A stretch of 64,000 bases of DNA from a virus (lineage: Duplodnaviria; Caudoviricetes): IMG/VR virus record IMGVR_UViG_3300006805_000023; one strand, written 5' to 3'. Below, one piece after another: positions 6,662-57,730 of the stretch; position 1 is the first letter of the stretch; each line of letters opens with the position of its first letter. The notes under the pieces are model-generated. The model did no database searches, had not been told where the DNA came from, and saw only the letters and a program-made list of their open reading frames with translations. A program made the translations under genes and the position numbers.

Positions 6662-7087
6662 GTGAAGAACATCGTCGCCGCCGGAATCTGTTATTACTGC
6701 CCCTCAACCGGAAAGGTCTTGTTGGGGCAGCGCGGTGCGGACAGTGATGGGGGCTCCGGCGAGTGGGCAGCCTTCGGCGGTAAGCTCGAAGACGGCGAGA
6801 CTCTGATACAATGCGCAGTCCGCGAGGTTCAGGAGGAGACCGGTTATAAGGAGTCCAAGCCGATGGCGCTCCGCCTCAACTACCGCTCGACCTGGACCCA
6901 CGGCGACGTCCGGGTGGTGTTTTACTGCTTCATGCAAGCAGTGCCTGCCGAGTTTAAGCTCCCACAGCTCGACCAGACAGAGCACTCCAAAGCGGGCTGG
7001 TTCCCGGCGGACAAAATGCCAGCTGGGCTGCTCAAGCCGTTCGCCAGCAACCTCGACGTGGGAGCCCTCAAGCGCCTGAAGGTCTAG
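6662..7087 (+). CDS. NUDIX hydrolase
   Basis: Nudix box GGKLEDGETLIQCAVREVQEETG. Confidence 0.92.
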   Translation: MKNIVAAGICYYCPSTGKVLLGQRGADSDGGSGEWAAFGGKLEDGETLIQCAVREVQEETGYKESKPMALRLNYRSTWTHGDVRVVFYCFMQAVPAEFKLPQLDQTEHSKAGWFPADKMPAGLLKPFASNLDVGALKRLKV

Positions 7088-7122: not shown

Positions 7123-8247
7123 ATGACCTCCCGTTATCAGGACCCCAAAATCGCCGAGATCTTCTCGGAAGACCGCAAGTATACCCTCTGGCTCCTCATC
7201 GAGGAGGCCTTGGTTAAAGCCCTCGCTCCGGAGGATGTCAGCAGACCGTTCTCGTCCTTCATCCAGGGGCTCCAGGGTGTTAATCTGACCAGCTTCATCA
7301 ACGCCTGCAAACACGAGGAGCAAGGTACCAACCACGACGTCGGGGCGTTCCTGAACGTGCTGGAAGCCAGGGCTGACGGCTGCGTTTCTACCTTCCTGCA
7401 TCGCGGCTTCACATCGTCCGATGTGGTTGACACTGCGACCAGTCTGCAGATTCATGCTGCCCTCAGGCATATCGAGTGGCTCAAACACGACTTCAAGGAG
7501 GCCATCACGAACTCTGGAGACGCCGCGTGCGTCGGCTATACCCACGGGATGCCAGCCGAGGCGATGTGCCTCAGTGCGCGCTGGCAGCGCTGTTTCAACG
7601 AGCTGCGCGACCTACCACGGATCAAGCCGCATCTGACTGGACCACTCGGAGACGCCAAGCATCTTGACATCGACACCAGGATCGAGCTGGCACGACTTCT
7701 CGGTTTCCATAACGATGGTGGAAAAGGCAGAGCGCCAGCCCAGCCCAACTACATGCAGTGCTCGGAGCGGTCGGACTTTGCCAGACTGGCGTCGTCCATC
7801 GCGATCAACGGGAGCGTGCTTGCCAAGATGGCGCTCGACATGCGCCTGTTAGTGTTCAAGGGCGAAATGGGACGGGAAAAGGGGCACCACGAAATGGGCT
7901 CATCCGCGATGCCTCACAAAACCAACCCAGCTGATCTCGAAAAGGTTTGTGGTCTGGCCCGTGTGTTACGCGGCAACGCCATGGTCGCCATGGAGAACAT
8001 TGAGCTCTGGTTGGAGCGCGACATCAGCCACAGCTCGACCGAGCGCATGTGGCTTCCCGACTCCTTCCACCTTTACTGCCACATGTTGACCATTATGACC
8101 AAGGCCGTCGTGAACTACAAGCCGACCCACGAAATGGGAGAGGCTCTAGTTGATAATGAGAAGGACCTGCACACCGCAGCCAACGTGGTTCTGCTGCAAA
8201 AGCAGGGGATGGGACGCCGTGCCGCTTGGCTCAAAGTCAAAGGTTAA
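7123..8247 (+). CDS. purB: Adenylosuccinate lyase family protein (short, 374 aa)
   Basis: TNHDV, FTSSDVVDTA, GYTHG, signature SSAMPHKTNP, WLERDISHSSTERMWLPD. Confidence 0.9.
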   Translation: MTSRYQDPKIAEIFSEDRKYTLWLLIEEALVKALAPEDVSRPFSSFIQGLQGVNLTSFINACKHEEQGTNHDVGAFLNVLEARADGCVSTFLHRGFTSSDVVDTATSLQIHAALRHIEWLKHDFKEAITNSGDAACVGYTHGMPAEAMCLSARWQRCFNELRDLPRIKPHLTGPLGDAKHLDIDTRIELARLLGFHNDGGKGRAPAQPNYMQCSERSDFARLASSIAINGSVLAKMALDMRLLVFKGEMGREKGHHEMGSSAMPHKTNPADLEKVCGLARVLRGNAMVAMENIELWLERDISHSSTERMWLPDSFHLYCHMLTIMTKAVVNYKPTHEMGEALVDNEKDLHTAANVVLLQKQGMGRRAAWLKVKG

Positions 8248-12477: not shown

Positions 12478-14058
12478 ATGCTGCCCTCCACCTCTCCCGT
12501 CCCCTCCCCACACGATCTGGTTTACCTTGAGCTGATGCGCCGTATCCGAGCGCACGGTGACTACCGGATGGAACGCACCGGCACTGGTGCCTATTCGTTG
12601 TTCGCCCAGCAACTGCGCTTCGACCTGACGGACGGTAGCTTCCCGCTGCTGACTACTAAGAAGGTCCACCTGCGCTCGATCATCCACGAGCTGCTCTGGT
12701 TCCTGAAGGGCGACACCAACATCAAGTACCTCAACGACAACGGCGTGACGATCTGGGATGAATGGGCCAACCCGGACGGCGACCTAGGACCTTGTTATGG
12801 CTATCAATGGCGTCAATGGGGGGAGTGGTCCACTCAGCGTTTGGAAAAGAAGGCACCTGTCGTTAAACGTCTGGAGGATGAAATCCCGCCTTTCTGCGAC
12901 TACGATGTTTCCCTCCCTGAAGCCCCGGTCATTACCGATGCTGGCAAGGACGAGCGCAACCGCGCTCTCGTAAAGGTCGTGTTTCCACGTTCCTGCTACT
13001 CGTACACGATTCGAAAGGACCACGCCGAGAGGGGAGTGCGCGACCCCTATGCACCGTCGAAGTGCGGAGTTGGCTGTCTCGGCGAGGATGAGAGGACGCT
13101 TGGGATTCCGGAGACAGTCCTCAAAAACCTCATCGCTTGCTGGAACAAAATGATGGAACGCTGCTACGATCCGAAGTGCAAGGAATACAGGTTCTATGGT
13201 GCCATCGGAGTCAAGGTGTGCCGTCGCTGGCTCTGCAGATCCGCCTTCCTGAGCGACGCCACCAAGCTCCCGTGGTTTGAGCAAAAGTCGAAGGATCTGG
13301 CTGGATACCAGCTAGACAAGGACCATCTGGGAGACAGCACTTATTACTCGCCGACCACCTGCGCTTGGGTTCCTGAGTGGGTTAACTCGGCTTACGCTCA
13401 TACGCAGCCCTTCGTGGCGACAGCTCCGGACGGCACAGAGTATTATCACATTTCGCCTAGCGTGTTTGGCTCGATGCATCAATTGTCGGGGCATTCGATC
13501 TGCCGTTGTTTGCGTGGTGAGAGGCCTCACCATTTCGGCTGGAAGTTCTGCCCTGTTGAGGATCGAGGTCTGCGCTTTAGCTCCCCCACTGATCAGATCA
13601 AGCAGCTGGTCGAGGGCATCGTCAAAAGCCCTTACGGGAGACGCCACATTGTGTCGGCCTGGAATGTGAAAGACTTGCCCACGATGAAGCTCCCACCCTG
13701 CCATTGCCTGTTCCAATGCTTCGTCTCCTCGAAGGGCCGCCTGAGCCTCCACCTTTACCAGCGCTCCGCTGACTACCTGCTGGGCGTCCCCTTTAACATC
13801 GCGAGCTATGCGTTGCTGCTGCTCATGCTGGCTCAGGCCACTGGGAACAAGCCAGGCGAGCTGGTCATCACGTTCGGCGACGTCCACCTCTACTCCAACC
13901 ATCTGGAGCAGGCCGACCTCCAGCTGTCCCGCGCCCCGTTCGGAGCGCCTCGAATGGAGATCGGTGACTCAAAGGACATCTTCGGTTTCAAGTATGAGGA
14001 CTTCAAACTGCTGGACTACACCTCCCATGCTTCCATCAAGGCCGCCATCGCCGTTTAG
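12478..14058 (+). CDS. thyA: Thymidylate synthase with a large in-frame insertion
   Basis: ERTGTG, FPLLTTKKV, ELLWFLKG, IWDEW, DLGPCYGYQW, RRHIVSAWN, LPPCH, YQRSAD, GVPFNIASY, DVHLYSNH. Confidence 0.95.
   Translation: MLPSTSPVPSPHDLVYLELMRRIRAHGDYRMERTGTGAYSLFAQQLRFDLTDGSFPLLTTKKVHLRSIIHELLWFLKGDTNIKYLNDNGVTIWDEWANPDGDLGPCYGYQWRQWGEWSTQRLEKKAPVVKRLEDEIPPFCDYDVSLPEAPVITDAGKDERNRALVKVVFPRSCYSYTIRKDHAERGVRDPYAPSKCGVGCLGEDERTLGIPETVLKNLIACWNKMMERCYDPKCKEYRFYGAIGVKVCRRWLCRSAFLSDATKLPWFEQKSKDLAGYQLDKDHLGDSTYYSPTTCAWVPEWVNSAYAHTQPFVATAPDGTEYYHISPSVFGSMHQLSGHSICRCLRGERPHHFGWKFCPVEDRGLRFSSPTDQIKQLVEGIVKSPYGRRHIVSAWNVKDLPTMKLPPCHCLFQCFVSSKGRLSLHLYQRSADYLLGVPFNIASYALLLLMLAQATGNKPGELVITFGDVHLYSNHLEQADLQLSRAPFGAPRMEIGDSKDIFGFKYEDFKLLDYTSHASIKAAIAV
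12820..13590 (+). mobile_element. HNH-type homing endonuclease-like module inserted in frame in thyA
   Basis: About 257 aa between QWRQW and DQI; W..M..RCY...Y..YG..GV.VC.RW, LDKD...Y.P.TC.W...N and a C-terminal NUMOD1-like segment; visibly more A/T at third codon positions. Confidence 0.75.
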
Positions 14059-15526: not shown

Positions 15527-16819
15527 ATGGCACCCGCTACAACACCACTCCCACAAAACGTCCTCCCACCACGCGTCCTCAGCCCCGGCAAGATCGCCGC
15601 AGTCCTGGATGCTGGCTACGGCTCCTCTTCCAAAGGCCTCGTGTCGGCCTGGATCACCAAGAACGAGCGCCCTGACTTCCTGCTCACCGCCAACGGTCGC
15701 AATTCCTCGCACACCGTGGTGGATAACTCCCTGAAGGCCTCCCGCGAGGCCATGACACCATGCCAGCTCAAGGGCGAGTTCGTCTTCAAGGTCCTGCCGG
15801 TCGGAGCCTTCTACAACAAGTGGAAGGGCTACAACCCGATCATCTACATTGGCCCCGGTGCCGCTTTTACGGTCGAGGACCTCGTCAAGGAAATGAAGGC
15901 CTGCGAGCTGGACAAAACGCAGGTCTGGGTCCACCCGCTGGCATCGGTCGTCACGGAGGCCGACATCGGCTATGAAAACGGCACTTGGGACTTCGACGGC
16001 AACCCACGCCCGCAGATCGACCACGACTCCGGCACCACCAAGCACGGCACCACGGGCTCCGGCGTCGGAGCAGCTCGTGCCAAGAAGTCTCTGCGCAAAG
16101 GCAAGCAGTGGTATGATGTCTCCGACCAGCCTACGATGGGGCAGAGCGGCCTGATGTTCGCCGACACCTTCGAAGAGGCCGTCCTGAAGCGCCTGGCTCT
16201 CGGCAAGACCGGCCTGCTGGACGGTTCTCAGGGTTACCTGCTGAGCCTCTACGGGAAGTTCTTCCCACACTGCACTTCACGCCCCGTCACCCTGGCCTCA
16301 TTCTTCGCCGACATCAACCTCCCGGTCAGTGTGATCGGCAACGTCTGCGCGGTGGCCCGCACCTTCCCAATCCGGATCGCCAGCGTGCGCTATTTCCTGG
16401 ACAACCAGCCCGTCACCCTCGCCGAGAAGGTCGAAGCGGAGTCGAGGGGCCTGTTCGTCAATACTGTGGACTCCAACTCCGGTGGCTGGTATCAGGACCA
16501 ACGCGAGTTGACTTGGGAGCAGGTCAGCGAACAGGCCGGACGCCACATCGAGCCTCAGCTCACCAGTCTGACCAAGCTGCCACGTCGGATCGCCACGTGG
16601 TCCAAGGCCGCGATCCGCGATTTCCTGCTGCACAACGCCCCGCCGTGCGGCTGCAAGACTTACTTGTTTGTGACCTTCACGAATTATCTGAAGGGCTCCG
16701 AGATGAAGCACTGGATGCACCAGAACATCCATGAACTGGACGACGCCGTAACCGAGGTGCTACTGTCCGACTCCCCGGAGACTGACAGCGTGCTGCCACT
16801 GGTGCGGGACTTTGAGTGA
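15527..16819 (+). CDS. purZ: PurZ-type adenylosuccinate synthetase homologue (putative 2-amino-dA synthetase)
   Basis: DAGYGSSSKG (Ser where PurA has the Asp of GDEGKG), NSSHT, KVLP.G, HGTTGSG, SQGYLLSL..FFPHCTSR, ARTFPIR, NSGGWYQDQRELTWEQ, LTSLTKLPRR, TFTNYL. Confidence 0.8.
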   Translation: MAPATTPLPQNVLPPRVLSPGKIAAVLDAGYGSSSKGLVSAWITKNERPDFLLTANGRNSSHTVVDNSLKASREAMTPCQLKGEFVFKVLPVGAFYNKWKGYNPIIYIGPGAAFTVEDLVKEMKACELDKTQVWVHPLASVVTEADIGYENGTWDFDGNPRPQIDHDSGTTKHGTTGSGVGAARAKKSLRKGKQWYDVSDQPTMGQSGLMFADTFEEAVLKRLALGKTGLLDGSQGYLLSLYGKFFPHCTSRPVTLASFFADINLPVSVIGNVCAVARTFPIRIASVRYFLDNQPVTLAEKVEAESRGLFVNTVDSNSGGWYQDQRELTWEQVSEQAGRHIEPQLTSLTKLPRRIATWSKAAIRDFLLHNAPPCGCKTYLFVTFTNYLKGSEMKHWMHQNIHELDDAVTEVLLSDSPETDSVLPLVRDFE

Positions 16820-24706: not shown

Positions 24707-25594
24707 ATGATGGACCGAAAGATTATCATCGGGGGCCTCCCCCACCACGGCAAGACCACCATAGCAGGCATCATCGCGAGCAGGTTCGGAGTGACCTTCG
24801 CGAACACCTCGGACACCATCTACGAGCAGGTCGCCAAGGACTACGGCAAGACCGTCGAGGAGGTCCACGCGATGGATAAGGAGAAGCTGCGCCCGGAGCT
24901 GATCTTCGTGGGCGACACTCTGTGCAAGGTGCACGGCCTGGCCTATCTGACCCTGAAGCAGCTCGAAAAGCACGACGTGGTGTGCGGCGTCCGCAAGCCG
25001 CAGGAGCTGGCTCTGGTCCGGGCCGCCTATCCCAACTGCCTGTTTCTATGGGTGATCCGCCCCGGCTATCCGACGATCAAGGATAGCACCCAGCTTTCCC
25101 ACAAGGACGCTGATCTGGTGATCATGAACGCGGGATCGGTCTCCGACCTGGAGTCACAGGTAACGTCTGGACTGGTCAACAACAGCCTGGGTCTGAGCCA
25201 CCCCGGCAACAGCTTGTGGAACCTGCTGCACTGGTTCGCCTTCCAGCGTGACTGGAACGCACTGGAGCGCACCAACTTCATGCAGGCCTTTGAAACCCTG
25301 CTGTTCATCACCGGCAAGTCCTGCCCGTGCGCCATCGAGTTCCAGGCGATCAAGAAGGTCCTTCCGCCTCCGGCTGGGCACGACGAGTTCTGGAACTGGA
25401 CTTTGCTGGTGCACGACTGGGTCAACTATAAGCGCGGCGTGCCTACCCACTGGGACTGGACCCAGGGCCATCCAGGGTTCAAGATCCTCAAGGAGGCGTT
25501 CTCATCTGGAACCGCCGAAGGCATCCTGTCCGGCACCTCTGTCCCAACCCAACCAGCAACCGACCTCACTTACTGCGCGCCATGCTCAAAATAA
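24707..25594 (+). CDS. dNMP-kinase-like P-loop domain fused to an Erv1/Alr-like helical domain
   Basis: GGLPHHGKTT...R.EL..VG...VR...E kinase pattern; C-terminal LWNLLHW...CPC..EF...W....HDWVN..RG. Confidence 0.6.
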   Translation: MMDRKIIIGGLPHHGKTTIAGIIASRFGVTFANTSDTIYEQVAKDYGKTVEEVHAMDKEKLRPELIFVGDTLCKVHGLAYLTLKQLEKHDVVCGVRKPQELALVRAAYPNCLFLWVIRPGYPTIKDSTQLSHKDADLVIMNAGSVSDLESQVTSGLVNNSLGLSHPGNSLWNLLHWFAFQRDWNALERTNFMQAFETLLFITGKSCPCAIEFQAIKKVLPPPAGHDEFWNWTLLVHDWVNYKRGVPTHWDWTQGHPGFKILKEAFSSGTAEGILSGTSVPTQPATDLTYCAPCSK

Positions 25595-26355: not shown

Positions 26356-26650
26356 GCCGCTGGTCCTAGCCTGGACGGCACCGGCACCCCCGGATTCAAC
26401 CTGCAGCTACGATCACTCCACGGCGGAGACGCTGTTTGGGCGCTTCTTGATAACCTGGAAGGGCTGGAAGATTCTGCCCGAAAATCTGGCGTGGGGTGAG
26501 AGCCCAGGCGATCCTGGATACACGCTTGATGAGACCCCGTGGGGTGAGTTTGAGTGCAGGGGGTGGGACTCCCTAGAAGAAGTCCAGAGGTGGGCGGAGG
26601 ACGAGCTGGAGCGTCGGATGCGGCTCCAGCTCGAAAAGTTCACCGCTTAG
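26309..26650 (+). CDS. Hypothetical protein
   Basis: Start moved to MSATPQQ; overlaps the upstream gene. Confidence 0.55.
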   Translation: MSATPQQAATLPTSAKPLVLAWTAPAPPDSTCSYDHSTAETLFGRFLITWKGWKILPENLAWGESPGDPGYTLDETPWGEFECRGWDSLEEVQRWAEDELERRMRLQLEKFTA

Positions 26651-27663
26651 AGGATCGAGAGCCTGCTGGTTGACAGGTGTTCCATGACGTCCTTGCGATC
26701 CTGATCACACCACCGGCAGTCGGCCATGTTTTGAAACACCAGATCGTGCTCCTTGGCGACGTTGGTACCCAGAAGCACCGGGTTGTCAGAGTTGATGGTG
26801 ACTGGGATCTGCAGGCGTGCTGCCACAACCAGGGCCGTGTTAAGCTCCTGCTTGGAGATGGTCTCAGTCCGCAGGCAGGCCGTCGGGCAGACCTCGAAAG
26901 TGACCTTGCGCAGCCGCTCCATCTCTGGCTCATTCAGCTTGATGTGAGCAAGCGATTTGAGCAGGTCCAGGCCGTGGCCGATCCGCGTAACGCCCCCGAT
27001 GACGTCCAGGACGTTCAGGACGTTCATCCCAGTGTCACGTGCTTCACCGACGTGGTAGGTCAGGAACAGACCCTTTGAGTAGGCTTCGTGGAGGGGAGGC
27101 AGCATGTTCCTGGCAATCCAGTCCTTGTCGCGCTCCTGACCGGTCTCGGTCCCGCAGATGTCGAAGCCGTCGGCACCGGCCTCAATGGCAGCACGCACGG
27201 AGCCCCACAGGACCGAGACCGGTTCACGCCGGTCCGCGCACACGATCAAACGGGTCGAAATCCCGTGGCAGTCACCGGCGTCGCTGAGTCCCTGACGGGC
27301 CGCCCGGATCAGTGGCACCAGCATGTCTGGGCCACGCCGGTAGGGATCGAAGCGCATGTCGATGTGCTGCAGCTTACCGCCGGTCATCAGGTACTGGTGG
27401 ACCACGGCCTCGAAGCATGAGCGCCTCACGGCGTCCGGACCCTGCTGAATGTCCTCCACCATGGCGTGAGGACCGCTCTTACGGCTCAGAAACTCATCAT
27501 GAGTGGTCGTGTTGTGCTTGGTCTTGGTCATCAATTCCTCCAGTTCAATCGAGCTGAGCATGGCCAGCTTGCGCCCGGACCGGTAGGCCAGCTCCCAGAG
27601 GATGTGTGGTGGAGTTGAGCCACCGAGGTGGCAGTGAAAGTCACAGTATTTAGTTTGCTGCAT
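26647..27663 (-). CDS. Adenosine/AMP deaminase family protein
   Basis: DFHCHLGGS, GFDICG, TYHVGE, RIGHG, FEVCPT, INSDNP; start MQQTKY at 27663. Confidence 0.9.
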   Translation of the reverse strand: MQQTKYCDFHCHLGGSTPPHILWELAYRSGRKLAMLSSIELEELMTKTKHNTTTHDEFLSRKSGPHAMVEDIQQGPDAVRRSCFEAVVHQYLMTGGKLQHIDMRFDPYRRGPDMLVPLIRAARQGLSDAGDCHGISTRLIVCADRREPVSVLWGSVRAAIEAGADGFDICGTETGQERDKDWIARNMLPPLHEAYSKGLFLTYHVGEARDTGMNVLNVLDVIGGVTRIGHGLDLLKSLAHIKLNEPEMERLRKVTFEVCPTACLRTETISKQELNTALVVAARLQIPVTINSDNPVLLGTNVAKEHDLVFQNMADCRWCDQDRKDVMEHLSTSRLSIL

Positions 27664-28630
27664 AGACGGTTCCAAGTTTGATGCGTTCCTCGATTTTTGT
27701 GCGGTTGACTTCGGCCAGTTTCTCCACTGTGATCCCAAGCTCGTTGGCGGTGGCTACCAGATAAAACAGCACGTCGCTAAGCTCGTCAAGCATCCGGTCT
27801 TTTGCGCGGTGGCCGAGATCACTGGCGCTGACCTGGGAGCTGTTGATACGGCGCATCACCTTTTGAACCACTCCGAGGACCTCGCCGCCTTCGCTGGCGA
27901 GCCCGGAGGTCGTGTAAACCAGTCCGGACGGGTACTGGGCTACTCGTTTGACCCAGCCCTGGTAGGCGTCGAGCTGAGCAATCATGGTGTCCTCCTCAAG
28001 GGTGAACTCCATCGTGCAGCCACGGTCCGGCGGTGGCGAGGTGCGCAGCCGCATCCCGAAGGACACCGCCTCCTTGGCGAGGAAGGCCACCAAGTGCGTG
28101 CTGGTGAGGTCTGAGTCCTGCACAGTGAGCACTCCAGTTTCCAGCTCGACCGTGGCGGTCGGGAAGTTCTTCTGCAGCAAGATGGCGAGCTTGCCAGCTA
28201 CCACCTGAAGGGACGGCCCGAATGACACCGTGGCCCCGTTCTCGAACAGAGATGAGAGGTCTGGGCGCGTGTAGCCCTCACCCTTGATCCACTTACCAGT
28301 AGGGTCGGCCAGATGGCCGGTCTCCGGGTCGCCCTTGGTGCAGTTTGAGCGGTGCACCTCGTCCCAGGCCAGCTGCATCACCGGAGCGATGCCGAGCCGG
28401 TTGGCAAGCTGGAAGATGAACACCAGCGCGTCGATCAGACAGTCGGTCGTGTGGGTCAGGCGCTCCCGTTCCGTCGGGAGGTCCTTGGCCTCGTCCAGCT
28501 CGGTCTGCAGCTCCTCCTTGAAAAAGGCCTGGTAGGTTTGAACGACGCTGGCGTCGAAGACGGGTTTGCCTGCCAGCGGGATTCTCCACTTTTCGGCAAA
28601 GGCGCGGATGTCGGATAGTTGATTGACCAT
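27650..28630 (-). CDS. Tandem all-alpha NTP pyrophosphatase (DR2231/PRA-PH-like domain plus MazG-like domain)
   Basis: N-domain EEL..E...D.LID...WDEVHRSNCTKG...GKWIKG.GY..PDL; C-domain GLASEGGEV...DELSDVLFY...N..KI..R. Confidence 0.82.
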   Translation of the reverse strand: MVNQLSDIRAFAEKWRIPLAGKPVFDASVVQTYQAFFKEELQTELDEAKDLPTERERLTHTTDCLIDALVFIFQLANRLGIAPVMQLAWDEVHRSNCTKGDPETGHLADPTGKWIKGEGYTRPDLSSLFENGATVSFGPSLQVVAGKLAILLQKNFPTATVELETGVLTVQDSDLTSTHLVAFLAKEAVSFGMRLRTSPPPDRGCTMEFTLEEDTMIAQLDAYQGWVKRVAQYPSGLVYTTSGLASEGGEVLGVVQKVMRRINSSQVSASDLGHRAKDRMLDELSDVLFYLVATANELGITVEKLAEVNRTKIEERIKLGTVYAAN

Positions 28631-28654
28631 CCACACCAGAAAGCACTATAAGCC

Positions 28655-29263
28655 TTAGTCGTCGCCAGGCGAGCTGGAGGAGTTGGACGAACTGGAGCTG
28701 GAGCTGTTCCTGGAGCTGGACGAACTGGAGTTCGAGGAGTGCGAGGACGGGCTGGAGGAACTGTCCGAACTACGGGAGCTGCTAGAGGAGTTGGAGGAGT
28801 TGGAGCTGCTGGAGGAGTTGGAGCTGCGGGACGACGGAGAACTCGAAGAGCTGTTGATGGAGCTGGTCGAGCTGCTGGATGAGCTGGAACTGCTGGACGA
28901 GTTCTGCGAGGAGCTGGAGGACTCCAGGAACCGGTAGTCAAGCACGTCTGCCTCGTGGGCGTCCTGAATGCGCTTGACGGCGTGCGTGAAGTCCTGCTCG
29001 GAGAAGATCTTGACGACCAGCTGGCCGTTGCCCTGGGTCGTGACCAGCTCGAACTTCGTGAGAGAGGTGAGCTCAATCAGCTGCTCCGCCCTGGCACCCA
29101 GGGAGATGCTCTGAGACACGGTCCCGTTGGGGAGACGCACGTCCAGGTTGATGAGCGAGCTTGACTTGGAGGTCAGAGTCAGCTTGAAGTCAGCTGCGAC
29201 GGTGGACAGGACGCGCAGCAGCACGTCTGGAGTTGCTTCGATCTGGAGGGTGGCGCGTTTCAT
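28655..29263 (-). CDS. Protein with globular N-terminus and a Ser/Asn-rich tail of about 85 aa
   Basis: ORF track; tail is almost entirely Ser. Confidence 0.7.
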   Translation of the reverse strand: MKRATLQIEATPDVLLRVLSTVAADFKLTLTSKSSSLINLDVRLPNGTVSQSISLGARAEQLIELTSLTKFELVTTQGNGQLVVKIFSEQDFTHAVKRIQDAHEADVLDYRFLESSSSSQNSSSSSSSSSSSTSSINSSSSSPSSRSSNSSSSSNSSNSSSSSRSSDSSSSPSSHSSNSSSSSSRNSSSSSSSNSSSSPGDD

Positions 29264-30850: not shown

Positions 30851-31200
30851 ACAACCTCACCGCGCTACTCAAGACCGTCGAGCTTGATGAAAGCCACTTC
30901 TCCGACTGGGGTACTGGGGAGTCCGGTTACCTCCAGCTGTCCGATGTCGAGGAGCTGCTCCAGAAGCTCATCGTCGAAAACTCCTGCGTCGGCAAGCATG
31001 GTAAGCACGAACTCGTCAGCATCTTCAGCCAGAACGACGGCCCGGATGGTGTCTCCAAAGAAGTGCGCTGGTGCAGCCGCTGTGGCGCGGTCGTGATTGA
31101 TCGCGACGACGGTAGCCGCACCTTCCCAGGTGCAGCTATGAAAATGCGCCACTCCACATTGTCCCAAGCCGTCCACAACCTCACCCAGATCGCCCCATGA
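30847..31200 (+). CDS. Hypothetical protein with Cys/His ligands
   Basis: C.GKHGKH...WCSRCG; ATGA overlaps. Confidence 0.7.
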   Translation: MNNLTALLKTVELDESHFSDWGTGESGYLQLSDVEELLQKLIVENSCVGKHGKHELVSIFSQNDGPDGVSKEVRWCSRCGAVVIDRDDGSRTFPGAAMKMRHSTLSQAVHNLTQIAP

Positions 31201-31793
31201 AAACCGCCCTGCTTGTCTCCCTCTCGCTGCTTCTCGCCTCATGCTGCTACGACTCAGCACAGCTCACCGTTTCGACCGGACCCAGCTACCGCAACCCGCT
31301 GCTGTGGAACCGCCCCAACCTGACGTGGGCAGTTGACTATTCGACGGTGCCGGTCGGGTTGTCTGGGCGGTGCGGCCTGGACGGGGCGGTGCAGGAGTGC
31401 TTGCGTCCGTGGGAGTCCTCTGGCGTGTTCCGCTTCACCCAGGCCACACAGGGCGTCCGGCCCGACATCAGGATCGGCTTCCGTGATCTCGGCTGCAACA
31501 ACGACCACGCCGGTCGGGCCGGGTTTCCGTGGACTGCTGATCGCGGCCAGATCTGGCTCAACTCCCAGCAAAACTGGAGCACCGGCTGGTCGTTGACGGC
31601 CTGCCAGCTGGGCGACTGGCTGCCGCATGAAGTCGGCCACTCTCTGGGCCTGCTGCACACCAGCTCGTGCAGCTCTTGCATGCAAGAGCATGGACCCTAT
31701 GGGAAACCGACCCACCACGACCTGCAGACGCTCCGCCGCGTCTATGCGCCAACGACCGTGGTGCACCCGGTGTTTGGGCCGTTGGTCCGTTAA
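31197..31793 (+). CDS. Matrixin (M10)-type zinc metallopeptidase, lipoprotein signal
   Basis: LLLASC lipobox, PDIRIGF, HEVGHSLGLLH, Met-turn-like CMQ. Confidence 0.85.
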   Translation: MKTALLVSLSLLLASCCYDSAQLTVSTGPSYRNPLLWNRPNLTWAVDYSTVPVGLSGRCGLDGAVQECLRPWESSGVFRFTQATQGVRPDIRIGFRDLGCNNDHAGRAGFPWTADRGQIWLNSQQNWSTGWSLTACQLGDWLPHEVGHSLGLLHTSSCSSCMQEHGPYGKPTHHDLQTLRRVYAPTTVVHPVFGPLVR

Positions 31794-32031: not shown

Positions 32032-33174
32032 ATGAAAACCCTCGTCATCCTGTCCACCATTATCGGCATCGCCATCGGCGTGGGTTCCGCCTGCGCAGCC
32101 CCGACCCCTCACGTGACCGCCACGTGGGGAGGAGACTATGTTAAGCTCATCGAGATCAAGACCGGCAAGACCTGGCTTGAGTCCTACGACGACTTTTTCG
32201 CCAAGTGCGGCAAGCACAAGCCGTCTGAGCTTGGCGTGAAGGTCATGGGGCGTCTGCCAAGCTGGTATAAAGGGAGAGGGTCACAGCCACCCAAGACACG
32301 CGGCCTGAAACCAGCCCCTCCAGAAGAGCCGGTTGTCGCACCCCTCATTGAATCAGGCAGCAACCCGGTCAACCCACTACTGCCTGACATCGCACCAAAG
32401 ACAATCGGCTTGCTCGATGCCTTCAAGTCGATGATAACCGGTGCCGAGCCGGAGTTCACCATGGGTGAGGACCAGCGCCAGCGAATCGTCCCAGAGACGG
32501 AAGGCTACACCTTGATCCCAGGAATGGAGAAGCCAGCCGCCCGCACCAGAGGGCTTAAGAAGGAGCCGGAGCCAAGCATCTCCGACAGGGTTGTCGCAAC
32601 AATCGACGGCGTGAAGGTTTACTCGCTCCTGACCGAGGACCCGGCACCAAGCACGGAGCCAGCCAGAAAGTCAGGAGTCATTGCCGGTAACGCCGTCACG
32701 ATCACCCCAACCTACGACGTGAGGTATCCGGCTGTCGTCACCCCCTACGCACTCGATGCCCTGTTCAAAGGCGAACTGGCGGGGATGGGCGAGGTCTTCA
32801 TCCGCGAGGCCAAGAAGAACAACATCTGCCCACTGTTCCTGGCTGGCGTAGCAATGCACGAGTCCGACTCTGGCAAGAGCTACCTGTGCCGCAACAACAA
32901 AAACGCCTTCGGCTCCTACGACTCCAAGCACAAGGTGTATCGGTCGTTCCCGAACATTGAGGCTTCCATCGCCTTCACGGCCTCTCAGCTCAACAGCAGC
33001 CTTTACGTGCTCAACAAGAAGAAGATGTGCCACACCATCAGGCAGATTCATGATGTTTACTGCCCGATCGGAGCTGGCAACGACCCCAAGAAGGTCAACA
33101 AGTTCTGGTCGAGCGGCGTCGTTTACCACATGCAGCGCTTTCTTGGACCCACCGTTTACGTAGCCTCCAACTGA
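32032..33174 (+). CDS. Exported protein with C-terminal GH73/glucosaminidase-like muralytic domain
   Basis: Signal peptide; FIREAKKNNI.PLFLAGVAMHES..G.S....NAFG...F.NIEASI...Y. Confidence 0.75.
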   Translation: MKTLVILSTIIGIAIGVGSACAAPTPHVTATWGGDYVKLIEIKTGKTWLESYDDFFAKCGKHKPSELGVKVMGRLPSWYKGRGSQPPKTRGLKPAPPEEPVVAPLIESGSNPVNPLLPDIAPKTIGLLDAFKSMITGAEPEFTMGEDQRQRIVPETEGYTLIPGMEKPAARTRGLKKEPEPSISDRVVATIDGVKVYSLLTEDPAPSTEPARKSGVIAGNAVTITPTYDVRYPAVVTPYALDALFKGELAGMGEVFIREAKKNNICPLFLAGVAMHESDSGKSYLCRNNKNAFGSYDSKHKVYRSFPNIEASIAFTASQLNSSLYVLNKKKMCHTIRQIHDVYCPIGAGNDPKKVNKFWSSGVVYHMQRFLGPTVYVASN

Positions 33175-43077: not shown

Positions 43078-43413
43078 ATGAAGCTCCTCCACCCCTCCCC
43101 GCAGAACATCATCGCCCCTCACCTCACGATCCGTGGCATGCACTTCGACAAGGTCTCCCGGACCTTTTCGGTGGACGCCAGCCAGCTCTCCCCTCAGAAC
43201 TCCGGCCATTTCATGGGCCAGCTCTACAACGACGCTATGGACGTCGGCGTCGTGCTCGACAACCCTCACACCAACCGCTCAGTGCCGTTCTTCCTCAAAA
43301 ACGTCGATGAGCGCGAGGGCGACGTCATAGGATGGCGCTTCGAAGTGCTCGGAGAAACGGCATCCCGCCACCCCGAGCTTGCTGGTCTCAAACTCCTGAT
43401 CGTCAACACCTAG
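43078..43413 (+). CDS. Hypothetical phage protein
   Basis: LYNDA.DVG...EGD..GW.F. Confidence 0.75.
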   Translation: MKLLHPSPQNIIAPHLTIRGMHFDKVSRTFSVDASQLSPQNSGHFMGQLYNDAMDVGVVLDNPHTNRSVPFFLKNVDEREGDVIGWRFEVLGETASRHPELAGLKLLIVNT

Positions 43414-43425
43414 TTTACACCACTC

Positions 43426-44301
43426 ATGAAAAACACACGCCCAAGCAGGGATCCCAGCCCGACCCCGCAGAAAAACACACGCCCGACCGGAGAACTTAAC
43501 TCGCTTTTCCACGAGATCAACCAGTTCCGTCACCGTCTGGTGCAATGCAAGGACTGGGAGGTTGCTGACACCAACCCAGCGCTCGAACTGGCCGAGTATG
43601 AGGCCGCTATGCCGAAGAGTCTGACCAAGTCGCAGGCACGGACCGAGCTGGCGTCCAAGTTCACGCGCACCAAGGAAATCCTGGCCGACCTGCGCAAGGT
43701 GTGGGGCGACAACAAGCATCTTGACATCCTGGCCACCCACTATACCCACTATCAGTCATGGGCTGACGTGTGCGCCGACCCGAGTCCACCGACGTTCGAC
43801 ATGCGAATCCCAGCCCTGCGGTTCATGGCCGAGGCCTATGACGTCTGGGCTCGTGCCAGCGGGAAGGGCGTGTCGCTCAAGCCTTACTTTGGCTACTTCG
43901 ACGGCCCCGGCTACAACACGTCAACCCTGGAGGCCGAGATCACTGAGCCGATCCGGACCGAGGATGCACGCCGCGAGATCGAAGCCGCGATCCGTGACCG
44001 TAGCCTGCAAGTCCCGCTCGATTTCATCACGGATACCAAGGCTTTCATCACGGAGCGCGCCCGCCAGATCAATTCCTCCATGCAGCACCGCTGGCTTCAA
44101 GTTTACAACAAGATCGAACAACACCACATCGAGGAAATGCGCAAGGAAATGGTGGAAGAGCACGGCCTTGACCGGTTCAAACCAGAGACGGTTGCTAAGC
44201 TTCATTCTCTGACTTGGGAAAACGGTCACTCCAGCGGTTTCTCTGAAGTGAAGTCCCAATATCGTGACCTCGTCGAGCTGCTGGAGACTACCCTTGACTG
44301 A
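43426..44301 (+). CDS. Hypothetical protein
   Basis: ORF track. Confidence 0.75.
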   Translation: MKNTRPSRDPSPTPQKNTRPTGELNSLFHEINQFRHRLVQCKDWEVADTNPALELAEYEAAMPKSLTKSQARTELASKFTRTKEILADLRKVWGDNKHLDILATHYTHYQSWADVCADPSPPTFDMRIPALRFMAEAYDVWARASGKGVSLKPYFGYFDGPGYNTSTLEAEITEPIRTEDARREIEAAIRDRSLQVPLDFITDTKAFITERARQINSSMQHRWLQVYNKIEQHHIEEMRKEMVEEHGLDRFKPETVAKLHSLTWENGHSSGFSEVKSQYRDLVELLETTLD

Positions 44302-44327: not shown

Positions 44328-44480
44328 ATGAAACTGACTGAGTCCCACATCACTCGCAATGCGCGAGTTCTGAAAATCCCAAGGACGCGAGGTCGTGTCA
44401 CTCTGGCTGAAGCGCAGGCCCAGTATGACAACATCAAAAACGGCCACCAAGAGCGTTCCAAGAAACCGCGCAACTCATGA
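44328..44480 (+). CDS. 50-aa basic peptide (below the ORF-track cutoff)
   Basis: MKLTESHITRNARVLKIPR...; its TGA overlaps the kinase ATG. Confidence 0.6.
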   Translation: MKLTESHITRNARVLKIPRTRGRVTLAEAQAQYDNIKNGHQERSKKPRNS

Positions 44481-45292
44481 CTTACCGACCCGACCGCCTT
44501 GAATTCGAGCCAGATGACCAGCTGCTGAAGCAGGCCATCGCGGTTGCAACCGCCGCCCACCAGGGAACTGGGCTCCCCGAGTGGAGCGAGCTGGGTTCAA
44601 GAGCGGAGCGGGTGGCAGGTCGTAACAAGATCTCCAAGACCCTCAAGCGCCGTGAACAAACGGCGCTCATGGTGTGGGCTCAGAAGGACGGCCACCTGCT
44701 TGACTCCAAAGCCTTCACGAGTGCCTGGAAAGCCGGTGGCAAGCGCGGCGAGACCGAAAACGAGGTCTATTTCGACGAGGCCGCCCAGGGCTGGTGGAAA
44801 CGCAACGACCTGTCCTACCACGACACCTACCTGAGTTTCTTTCAGCGCGTGGCGCTCCACAACAAGACCTTCCCGGAGGTCCCTCTTGAGCTTAAGGGGT
44901 TCGTGGCCGACTACAACCGCGCCAACCCGGAGCGGGAGTTGATGCTCAAGCCTGTGCTGTTCCAGCCTCACGTGGAGATCGAGAAGAACAGTGACACGGA
45001 ACATGGTGCCACCGAGGAAGAGGTTTTCCGGCACATGACCGCCCTCGGCTATCAGCGGGTCGGCACGCACGACTATTACGACCCCAAGCAGCAGATCAGG
45101 ATTGAGGACCTGCACGATGAGAACGTCTTCTTCAAAAACGGAGAGCTGTTCGTGATCGACCCCGTCATCTATCTGGACGAACGCGGTAAGAAGCGTCGCC
45201 TCCAGGGGTCAGTCGATGCCGTCACGGAGTCCTTCGTTCCAGGGTTGATTCAGTCTCTGCGAGTCTTGACCCACAGGGTTGACGGCTGCTAG
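44477..45292 (+). CDS. Polyvalent-protein-type Ser/Thr kinase-like domain
   Basis: GE.ENEVY...KRN..Y...LHN..FPE...V..QPH...EDLHDENV...FVIDP. Confidence 0.7.
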   Translation: MTYRPDRLEFEPDDQLLKQAIAVATAAHQGTGLPEWSELGSRAERVAGRNKISKTLKRREQTALMVWAQKDGHLLDSKAFTSAWKAGGKRGETENEVYFDEAAQGWWKRNDLSYHDTYLSFFQRVALHNKTFPEVPLELKGFVADYNRANPERELMLKPVLFQPHVEIEKNSDTEHGATEEEVFRHMTALGYQRVGTHDYYDPKQQIRIEDLHDENVFFKNGELFVIDPVIYLDERGKKRRLQGSVDAVTESFVPGLIQSLRVLTHRVDGC

Positions 45293-45307
45293 TTTCTGCG
45301 TTAGGTT
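45279..45307 (+). promoter_or_regulatory. Sigma70-type promoter
   Basis: TTGACG-17-TAGGTT-9nt-ATG. Confidence 0.65.
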
Positions 45308-45316
45308 GCTTCCCTT

Positions 45317-46087
45317 ATGGCAGCCAAACACACTCACAAGCTCTCCCCCGAAGCAACCGCCGTCCTCTTGAAGGCTACCGCTGAGGGATGTATCATCCGC
45401 CTTCCCGAAGGCAAGCTCCCGATGCCGGTCTTCAAGGAGATCAAGAAGGTCATGGAGGCCTCGTCCGGCAAGTGGCACACGCCCTCTCAGGGCTTCGTCC
45501 TGCAGCAGGACGCCGAGGTGACGCTCAAAAACCTCCTGGGTAGTGGCTCGGTGACGGACCAGAAGAAGGTGTTCCAGGCCTACTACACCTCTGACTCGAT
45601 CTCGGATGAAGTCGCTTATCTGGCCGACGTAAAGGGTCGCATCGTCCTGGAACCCTCCGCCGGTGGCGGTCATCTCGCCAAGGCCTGCATGCGGGCCGGA
45701 GCCCGCCGGGTGGACTGCATTGAGCTCAACCCGAAGGCCTTCGACGGACTGGTGCTGGCCGGTTTCATGACCGTGCGCGACGACTTCCTGAAGCTCAAGG
45801 CAGGTCCCGGCAGTCGTTACCACCGGATCGTCATGAACCCGCCGTTCTGCGTCAAGAAGGGGCTCGGCAAGCAGGACGTCGCCCACATCCGCCACGCTCG
45901 CGATGAGTGGCTGGAGCCTGAGGGATTCATCACCTCGATCGTTCCCGGCAACGGTGAAAAGTCCCGTCCCGACCTGTTCGACTCCGACCTCAAGGCCCGT
46001 CTGGTCCACCAGTGGCCTGCGGGTCACTTCCGCGAGTCCGGCACCATGATCGCCAACATGCTGATCCGCGTTTACCCTAAAGCATGA
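45317..46087 (+). CDS. Amino (N6A/N4C) DNA methyltransferase-like protein
   Basis: VLEPSAGGG motif I, CIELN, DFL, IVMNPPF motif IV. Confidence 0.85.
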   Translation: MAAKHTHKLSPEATAVLLKATAEGCIIRLPEGKLPMPVFKEIKKVMEASSGKWHTPSQGFVLQQDAEVTLKNLLGSGSVTDQKKVFQAYYTSDSISDEVAYLADVKGRIVLEPSAGGGHLAKACMRAGARRVDCIELNPKAFDGLVLAGFMTVRDDFLKLKAGPGSRYHRIVMNPPFCVKKGLGKQDVAHIRHARDEWLEPEGFITSIVPGNGEKSRPDLFDSDLKARLVHQWPAGHFRESGTMIANMLIRVYPKA

Positions 46088-57655: not shown

Positions 57656-57730
57656 GCCTGAGTAGCTCAGTGGCAGAGCTGGAGTCCCTAAAACTCTTGG
57701 TCGCCGGTTCGAATCCGGCCTCAGGCACCA
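57656..57730 (+). tRNA. tRNA with CUA anticodon (amber suppressor type), C at position 33, encoded CCA
   Basis: Acceptor GCCTGAG/CTCAGGC, D arm GCTC/GAGC, anticodon stem GGAGT/ACTCT with loop CCCTAAA (CTA at 57688-57690), T arm GCCGG-TTCGAAT-CCGGC, A73, CCA. Confidence 0.9.

Follow-up and report, generated by a model that had tools for sequence, protein, structure and literature searches.

A PurZ-type synthetase of a distinct long clade in a large phage and a candidate pathway to 2-aminoadenine nucleotides

Could a large, myovirus-like phage make its own 2-aminoadenine (Z) nucleotides? The question is raised by an open reading frame (ORF) at positions 15527..16819 (+) of a 64,000-nucleotide stretch of virus DNA (Duplodnaviria; Caudoviricetes; IMG/VR record IMGVR_UViG_3300006805_000023), which was analysed over its whole length and is called the window below. 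The ORF starts with ATG and runs uninterrupted for 430 amino acids, and its third-position GC of 0.82 is typical for genes of the window. An identical 430-amino-acid product was predicted by the Joint Genome Institute (JGI) gene caller on an independent 21.6-kb metagenome contig, and a Logan contig carries a 98%-identical copy. We assign this gene to a long clade of homologues of the succino-amino-deoxyadenylate synthetase PurZ, with which small phages put Z in the place of adenine in their DNA. Our reading, which we hold to be probable, is that it encodes a functional ATP/dATP-dependent PurZ-type ligase within a largely self-contained pathway for deoxynucleotides of Z (dZ nucleotides).

The synthetase and its active site

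The initial annotation of this locus had proposed an adenylosuccinate-synthetase fold, and this was borne out by a Pfam match, a structure model and structural searches. The Pfam match is to the generic adenylosuccinate-synthetase family and no other (PF00709, 1.2e-11). Modelled with AlphaFold from 117 homologues, the protein has a predicted local distance difference test score (pLDDT) of 92.8 and a predicted template-modelling (TM) score (pTM) of 0.92, and all of the top 43 Foldseek matches to this model are PurZ/PurA-fold chains. The first of these is phiVC8 PurZ (E 3e-28, target TM-score 0.86), followed in order by S-2L PurZ, Pyrococcus PurA and PurZ0. The product is an adenylosuccinate-synthetase-fold protein.

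Family-specific profiles place the protein with PurZ. PHROGs assigns it to phrog_1211, the PurZ family (5.7e-36), and the top NCBIfam hidden Markov model (HMM) is NF038379 PurZ (2.9e-47, 161.3 bits), which wins by a wide margin over archaeal-type PurA (72 bits) and TIGR00184 purA (45 bits, cut-off 396). The initial annotation had called for a comparison of HMM scores, and the PurZ model prevailed. A sequence search of the PDB gave phiVC8 PurZ as the best match (3.3e-25), then S-2L PurZ (3.2e-20), with weaker matches to P. horikoshii PurA (1e-15), PurZ0 (7VF6, 3.6e-6) and E. coli PurA (0.1).

Residues that discriminate PurZ from PurA were taken from the S-2L PurZ structure paper (PMC8342488) and from a metagenomic residue-association study (bioRxiv 10.1101/2025.10.22.683976) and were mapped onto the 430-amino-acid protein by sequence alignment. 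Every motif quoted in the initial annotation was located, namely GYGSSSKG at residues 30-37, FFPHCTSR at 245-252, ARTFPIR at 277-283 and TFTNYL at 383-388, together with the further strings NSSH at 59-62 and NSGGWYQDQRELTWEQ at 317-332. In the pocket for the 2-amino group of deoxyguanosine monophosphate (dGMP), S-2L Y21/G22/S23 correspond to Y31/G32/S33 and S-2L T273 (phiVC8 T262) corresponds to T346, so that Y31, S33 and T346 reproduce the PurZ pocket in alignment with phiVC8 and S-2L. As had been claimed from the sequence, a Ser takes the place of the catalytic Asp of PurA: Ser33 aligns with PurA Asp13 (D14 counting the initiator Met). Elsewhere around the nucleotide, the base-pocket residue S-2L Q190 aligns with Q235, the Arg beside Ser23 (S-2L R280) with R353, and the phosphate contact from the dimer partner (S-2L R146) with R190.

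The same alignment indicates deoxyribose selection and an adenine-type NTP pocket. The residue that clashes with a 2'-OH in S-2L (V241, the deoxy selector) is I284, which is followed by a 30-residue insertion, and the site of PurA Arg303, a ribose 2'-OH contact (E. coli R303, S-2L L278), is L351. The adenine-stacking residue (phiVC8 F295, S-2L F306) is F384, and the adenine-pocket residues phiVC8 N297 and Y298 are N386 and Y387, all within TFTNYL. Where this protein has F384 and N386, PurA has K332 and D334 and PurZ0 has M333 and D335. The protein thus has S33 and TFTN where PurA has Asp13 and the GTP-binding (S/T)K(L/I)D, which are the features by which the initial annotation had told PurZ from PurA, and it has N386 where PurZ0 has the guanine-specific D335. 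Among the 117 homologues, S33, T346, F384 and Y387 are each conserved at 90% or more. From these conserved pocket residues we predict a deoxy-specific enzyme that accepts a guanine nucleotide and uses ATP/dATP, that is, a PurZ rather than a PurA or PurZ0. PurZ-type activity of the 430-amino-acid enzyme is, judged from these residues, likely.

The comparison with characterized enzymes follows the same lines. The PurZ proteins of Vibrio phage phiVC8 (also called DgsS; 6FM1/6FKO/6TNH) and cyanophage S-2L (7ODX), the best matches in both sequence and structure, share their fold with the window protein. All of them have Ser in place of Asp13, an aromatic residue and a Thr beside the 2-amino group, Val or Ile as deoxy selector, F/N/Y in the ATP pocket and a pair of Arg in the Asp loop. 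The window protein is only 25-27% identical to them, exceeds them in length by about 70-90 residues, has three insertions, carries GSSSKG and NSSH, and falls in a separate clade. PurZ0 (7VF6; from Arthrobacter, Gordonia, Microbacterium and Streptomyces phages) has the Ser-type phosphate-binding loop (P-loop) and the reaction chemistry predicted here; unlike the window protein, it keeps the guanine-binding Asp (M/D versus F/N), uses GTP, is only weakly matched (3.6e-6) and forms its own clade. PurA (E. coli 1ADE; P. horikoshii 5K7X) shares the fold, the phosphate-binding loop and the arginines for the 5'-phosphate (IMP/dGMP) and the aspartate loop, and differs at Asp13 (Ser), at the GTP-site K/D pair (F/N) and at Arg303 (Leu).

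These differences bear on an explanation in which the gene and a PurB-like lyase gene in the window would be no more than auxiliary metabolic genes, a usual PurA/PurB pair that raises the supply of (d)AMP in the infected cell. Certain large phages, Microcystis phage MaAM05 being one, do carry PurB-like auxiliary genes, and the Pfam match is to the generic Adenylsucc_synt family only. With the catalytic Asp13 replaced by Ser, the guanine-specific K/D of the GTP site replaced by F/N, a match to E. coli PurA as weak as E 0.1 and nearest relatives that are Ser-type, we regard this explanation as very improbable.

A distinct long clade and its distribution

An exhaustive sequence search of 1.84 billion representatives returned 1,220 matches, 32 of them below 1e-30. 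Among the best 150 representatives (50%-identity clusters) plus the window protein, a P-loop was recognizable in 144, and the position of Asp13 is Ser in 143 of these and Thr in the remaining one. HMM scores, nearest structures, nearest clusters and active-site residues together support a PurZ-type rather than PurA-type gene.

Two trees were built with E. coli PurA as the sole outgroup, a quick tree with Shimodaira-Hasegawa-like approximate likelihood ratio test (SH-aLRT) supports and a bootstrap tree with ultrafast bootstrap (UFBoot)/SH-aLRT supports. Both place the window protein in a clade of ∼24-25 long proteins (400-480 amino acids), supported by an SH-aLRT of 98 in the quick tree and by 100/99 in the bootstrap tree. 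The characterized PurZ proteins (phiVC8, S-2L and SH-Ab 15497) form a separate clade (99/97) and PurZ0 (Vulture, Goodman and Hiyaa) a third (100/98). In the quick tree PurZ0 is split, with an SH-aLRT of 98, from a 123-row clade that holds both the window protein and the reference PurZ. The long-branch E. coli outgroup roots erratically, so our claim is limited to the clade of the window protein and names no sister group. The initial annotation had proposed a tree for placing the protein among PurA, PurZ and PurZ0. On the trees built here we call it a member of the Ser-type PurZ group on a distinct, uncharacterized branch, and it does not lie within the characterized PurZ clade.

A search of IMG/VR with the single protein found no related loci, and an alignment-based scan of IMG/VR yielded 206 relatives. 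The closest of these lie on contigs of about 80-320 kb, several of which (129, 150.6 and 320 kb) bear direct terminal repeats and are therefore complete. Some clade members reach 750-850 amino acids because they contain inteins with homing endonucleases; the intein-bearing relatives P0010, P0024 and P0041 (797-853 amino acids) carry LAGLIDADG or Hom_end homing endonucleases. Inteins in these copies are consistent with a conserved, important phage gene.

The clade has one cultured member in the Flavobacterium phage MaF61 (PQ858689, 167.8 kb), a myovirus by electron microscopy. Its ORF141, annotated as a 'putative adenosuccinate synthetase', is ∼30% identical to the window protein and falls in the long clade (100/99), and like the window's phage it encodes its own lyase (ORF149, 'adenosuccinate lyase'). 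In the literature that we searched, documented Z-DNA is confined to siphoviruses and podoviruses of small size that carry a compact Z cluster, purZ-mazZ-datZ(-dpoZ). In this cluster mazZ is a DUF550 gene, datZ encodes an HD-domain dATP triphosphohydrolase, and dpoZ, usually close by, encodes a Z-selective family-A polymerase. Z phages are placed in that literature in seven sipho/podovirus groups, with no mention of myoviruses, jumbo phages, PurB, Nudix or deaminases. The initial annotation's remark that known Z phages are small siphoviruses or podoviruses agrees with that literature, to which must be added that a cultured 168-kb myovirus, MaF61, carries an unremarked homologue.

Several of our observations speak against a PurZ-type enzyme serving a Z genome, some of them in the synthetase and its clade and others in the gene content described below. 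Regarding the synthetase, the score of 161.3 bits misses the curated NF038379 PurZ cut-off of 300 bits, the P-loop reads GSSSKG against GSTGKG in PurZ, and NSSH replaces the NAGH of PurZ. Of the three insertions relative to short PurZ (about residues 66-82, 150-172 and 286-316), the last, of ∼30 residues, comes directly after the deoxy-selector residue I284. In both trees the protein stands outside the clade of experimentally characterized PurZ, and the bootstrap tree put the outgroup within the family and gave its deep nodes supports of only 38-64%. The MaF61 paper is silent on Z. The altered P-loop, NSSH and the insertion after the deoxy selector mean that substrate preference could differ, and the initial annotation's caution over SSSKG, NSSH and the insertions was justified by the distinct long clade and the score below the NCBIfam cut-off.

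The same deviations can be read in favor of an enzyme with the PurZ fold and another substrate or product. Such a ligase might act on dIMP, dXMP or a ribonucleotide, and a trio of synthetase, lyase and deaminase would then remodel the purine pool or make some other modified purine. The distinct clade, the score below the PurZ cut-off, the altered P-loop and NSSH and the three clade-specific insertions, one of them beside the sugar-selecting residue, favor this explanation. Against it, the residues reported to recognize the 2-amino group and to keep out a 2'-OH (Y31, S33, T346, I284 and L351) are kept and are nearly invariant among the 117 homologues, and an IMP or dIMP enzyme would have no reason to lose Asp13. 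We consider a change of substrate unlikely and continue with the PurZ-type ligase as our reading.

Partner genes and a candidate dZ pathway

The window encodes a PurB-like adenylosuccinate lyase of 374 amino acids at 7123..8247 (+) (Pfam Lyase_1, 1.8e-17). It matches TIGR00928 purB at 1.6e-57, below that model's cut-off, and PDB adenylosuccinate lyases down to 4e-35. The protein ends ∼60 amino acids before the C-terminus of cellular PurB and retains HDV, TSSD, THG and SSAMPHKTN, which we take to be the catalytic motifs of adenylosuccinate lyases. In 10 related loci, MaF61 and five ∼150-kb phages among them, a PurB-like lyase gene and a long PurZ-like gene lie less than 10 kb apart. We had considered whether a phage PurB beside PurZ was novel and rejected the idea: the PurZ0 phages Hiyaa (gp76) and Ghobes (gp36) are already annotated with a PurB-like lyase, so the synthetase-lyase pairing itself is not new.

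Three further genes could act on the same nucleotides. Immediately upstream of the lyase gene, 6662..7087 (+) encodes a Nudix hydrolase of 141 amino acids with a complete Nudix box (Pfam NUDIX, 3.3e-20). At 27650..28636 (-) lies a gene for a double all-alpha NTP pyrophosphohydrolase of the MazG type (328 amino acids), with a Pfam MazG-like/MazG match at residues 244-319 and PHROG domains phrog_671 at residues 5-132 and phrog_229 at residues 215-322. These two predicted pyrophosphohydrolase partners are dispersed, and neither adjoins purZ. The product of 24707..25594 (+) has a P-loop domain like that of deoxynucleoside monophosphate (dNMP) kinases at residues 1-154 (phrog_139 deoxynucleoside monophosphate kinase, 6e-14; weak Pfam DNMK/AAA_17 matches), followed by a C-terminal extension. 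The C-terminal region of this protein also shows a weak Erv1/Alr sulfhydryl-oxidase match (E 8e-4). When MazZ and neighboring proteins of phiVC8, S-2L and SH-Ab 15497 were used as tblastn queries on the window, nothing significant was found. For the majority of the remaining ORFs, neither Pfam nor PHROGs gave a match.

These genes suggest how dZ nucleotides might be made. The double MazG-type enzyme, the Nudix hydrolase or both would convert dGTP to dGMP, and probably dATP to dAMP. The PurZ-type ligase would join dGMP and Asp, with (d)ATP, to give N6-succino-2-amino-2'-deoxyadenylate (dSMP), from which the phage PurB-like lyase would release fumarate to leave the monophosphate of Z (dZMP). Phage dNMP kinase and host kinases would then raise dZMP to the triphosphate (dZTP), to be incorporated opposite T. 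Nucleotides of dA would be removed by the pyrophosphohydrolases and possibly also by a deaminase-family enzyme, described below, in place of DatZ. In this scheme we infer all catalytic activities, that of the ligase included, the substrates of the helper enzymes and the occurrence of Z in virion DNA; fold, family, pocket residues, gene content and its recurrence are direct observations. The initial annotation's suggestion that the phage may make dZTP is strengthened by the PurB-like, NTP-pyrophosphohydrolase and dNMP-kinase genes of the window; it is not helped by the search for DatZ in the window, which gave no hit, and it stays at the level of what the phage may do.

The candidate for the role of DatZ is an adenosine-deaminase-family amidohydrolase, a 363-amino-acid ORF at 26647..27738 (-) (Pfam A_deaminase, PF00962, 3.1e-27). 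JGI calls this gene at 338 amino acids, which puts the start near 27663, and the protein matches TIGR01430 at 4e-29, below the cut-off. It retains HxH, HVGE and GHG and has SDN in place of TDD. The phage deaminases in general keep HxH, H-x-G-E, G-H-G and the first Asp of the adenosine deaminase (ADA) signature, which are the metal-binding and catalytic residues of adenosine deaminases. The position of the second Asp of the signature, a contact of the purine N7 in adenosine deaminase, is occupied by N, S, G or D. Of 15 large viral records with a long PurZ-like gene, 8 have a PF00962 match above the cut-off, as do four of the five that are estimated to be at least 90% complete. The PurZ and deaminase genes are syntenic in a 73%-identity relative. 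The related loci that bear on these observations are L108-L115, L040 and L116. Two deaminase queries matched just 2 and 8 of 50,697 phage records, and the records matched are unannotated or multi-contig and resemble bacterial DNA. Neither adenosine-deaminase tblastn query matched the MaF61 record.

The deaminase-family enzyme may remove dA nucleotides or nucleosides in place of DatZ, and could equally have another role. DatZ, DutZ and DmtZ are described as convergent solutions to the exclusion of A, and DutZ and DmtZ make up the helper set of PurZ0 (PMC12884076). Removal of dA by the candidate deaminase would parallel this convergence. The recurrence of so unexpected a partner in the clade, with the N7-contacting Asp not conserved, also adds to the case made above for a synthetase-lyase-deaminase trio that acts on other purines.

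The window's phage, myovirus-like and large, differs from phiVC8 and S-2L in having its own PurB-like lyase and deaminase, and in that DatZ was not found in the window. DatZ of phiVC8, S-2L and SH-Ab 15497 gave no tblastn match within the window, and among five related large records no YfbR-like/DatZ HD enzyme scored above the Pfam cut-off, with one sub-threshold match. Both results belong with the unfavorable observations listed earlier, as does the location of the replicative polymerase gene, which lies outside the 64-kb window. In a 49%-identity relative (L117) the PurZ-like gene is 6 kb from genes for a PolA and a DnaB helicase. We asked whether this PolA resembles the Z-selective polymerase DpoZ and found no support, again an unfavorable result: it is nearest to the PolA of large Bacillus myophages, at 26% identity, and no phage PolA of the collection comes closer than about that figure. 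The PurZ-like gene of this relative lies in a replication module at L117:1848-4361 with PolA, DnaB, two DEAD helicases and a ligase.

A different explanation is that dSMP or dZMP is made but not for a fully Z genome, the product serving instead a partial substitution, or the reaction a depletion of dGTP/dATP in host takeover or counter-defense. This explanation is favored by the lack of a DatZ homologue in the window or above cut-off in the five related records, and by a relative's PolA that gives no sign of a Z-selective DpoZ and stands closest, at 26%, to that of Bacillus myophages. On the other side, the polymerase of S-2L is not selective, and full Z substitution is reached in that phage through the removal of dATP (PMC8342488); on this precedent a phage that clears its dATP can do without a Z-selective polymerase. 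Three candidate dATP/dAMP-removing enzymes are encoded in the window, and depletion as the sole goal would leave the lyase and kinase without a purpose. We judge that partial substitution or depletion is improbable as the explanation.

With a PurZ-type ligase in a dZ pathway retained as our reading, it remains a separate matter whether the virion DNA itself is Z-substituted, for which we put the chances as roughly balanced. More tentatively, and here we lean toward doubt, there may be a lineage of large contractile-tailed phages, the window's phage and MaF61 among them, with Z genomes made through a long-form PurZ, in many of which a deaminase replaces DatZ. If this is true, Z genomes would extend to large myovirus-like phages of 90-320 kb, the first outside the small siphoviruses and podoviruses, and the deaminase route would be a previously undescribed chemistry for excluding A, a further case of the 'functional convergence' of DatZ, DutZ and DmtZ. 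The claim is directly testable because MaF61, a member of the clade, is in culture. The long PurZ, the short PurB and the candidate dA-nucleotide deaminase would also be new enzymes for the production of Z-DNA in vitro or in vivo.

Phage type and other features of the window

The initial annotation had described the source as a T4-like jumbo myophage. A gp6-like baseplate wedge, a tail-tube-like protein, an SbcC/gp46-like protein and a gp1-like dNMP kinase agree with a T4-like myovirus, and the use of PolA by relatives does not; capsid genes and genome size are beyond the scope of a 64-kb window.

Upstream of the synthetase gene, a thymidylate synthase gene at 12478-14058 (+) contains an in-frame insertion of ∼260 amino acids with an HNH endonuclease domain (phrog_2081, residues 175-363). 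In a ∼93%-identical relative ThyA is uninterrupted, at 299 amino acids (L004:7768-8664). The ThyA flanks of the window and this relative differ only in the immediate neighborhood of the junctions, the pattern that a homing element would leave. Rfam detected no group I intron in thyA.

A tRNA gene at 57656-57730 (+) has the anticodon CTA of an amber suppressor and an encoded CCA end (Rfam tRNA, 65.6 bits; labeled tRNA-Pyl by ARAGORN). TAG still terminates 23 of 83 long ORFs, so recoding is not general. In two pairs of adjacent genes, at 43078-44301 and 44477-46087 (+), both members share a frame, with a TAG and a handful of codons between them; the first gene of the second pair encodes a PolyVal-type Ser/Thr/Tyr kinase (PF18762, 1.1e-27). 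These same-frame pairs could be read-through fusions made by way of the suppressor tRNA, or the shared frame could be coincidental.

Beside the MazG-type gene, 28655-29263 (-) encodes a 202-amino-acid protein without a family match, whose C-terminal half is nearly pure Ser with scattered N, R, P and D. A matrixin-type metallopeptidase gene at 31197-31793 (+) (PF00413, 3e-12) lies near a gene for a glucosaminidase-domain protein at 32032-33174 (+), and the two may form a lysis or virion-associated cell-wall module.

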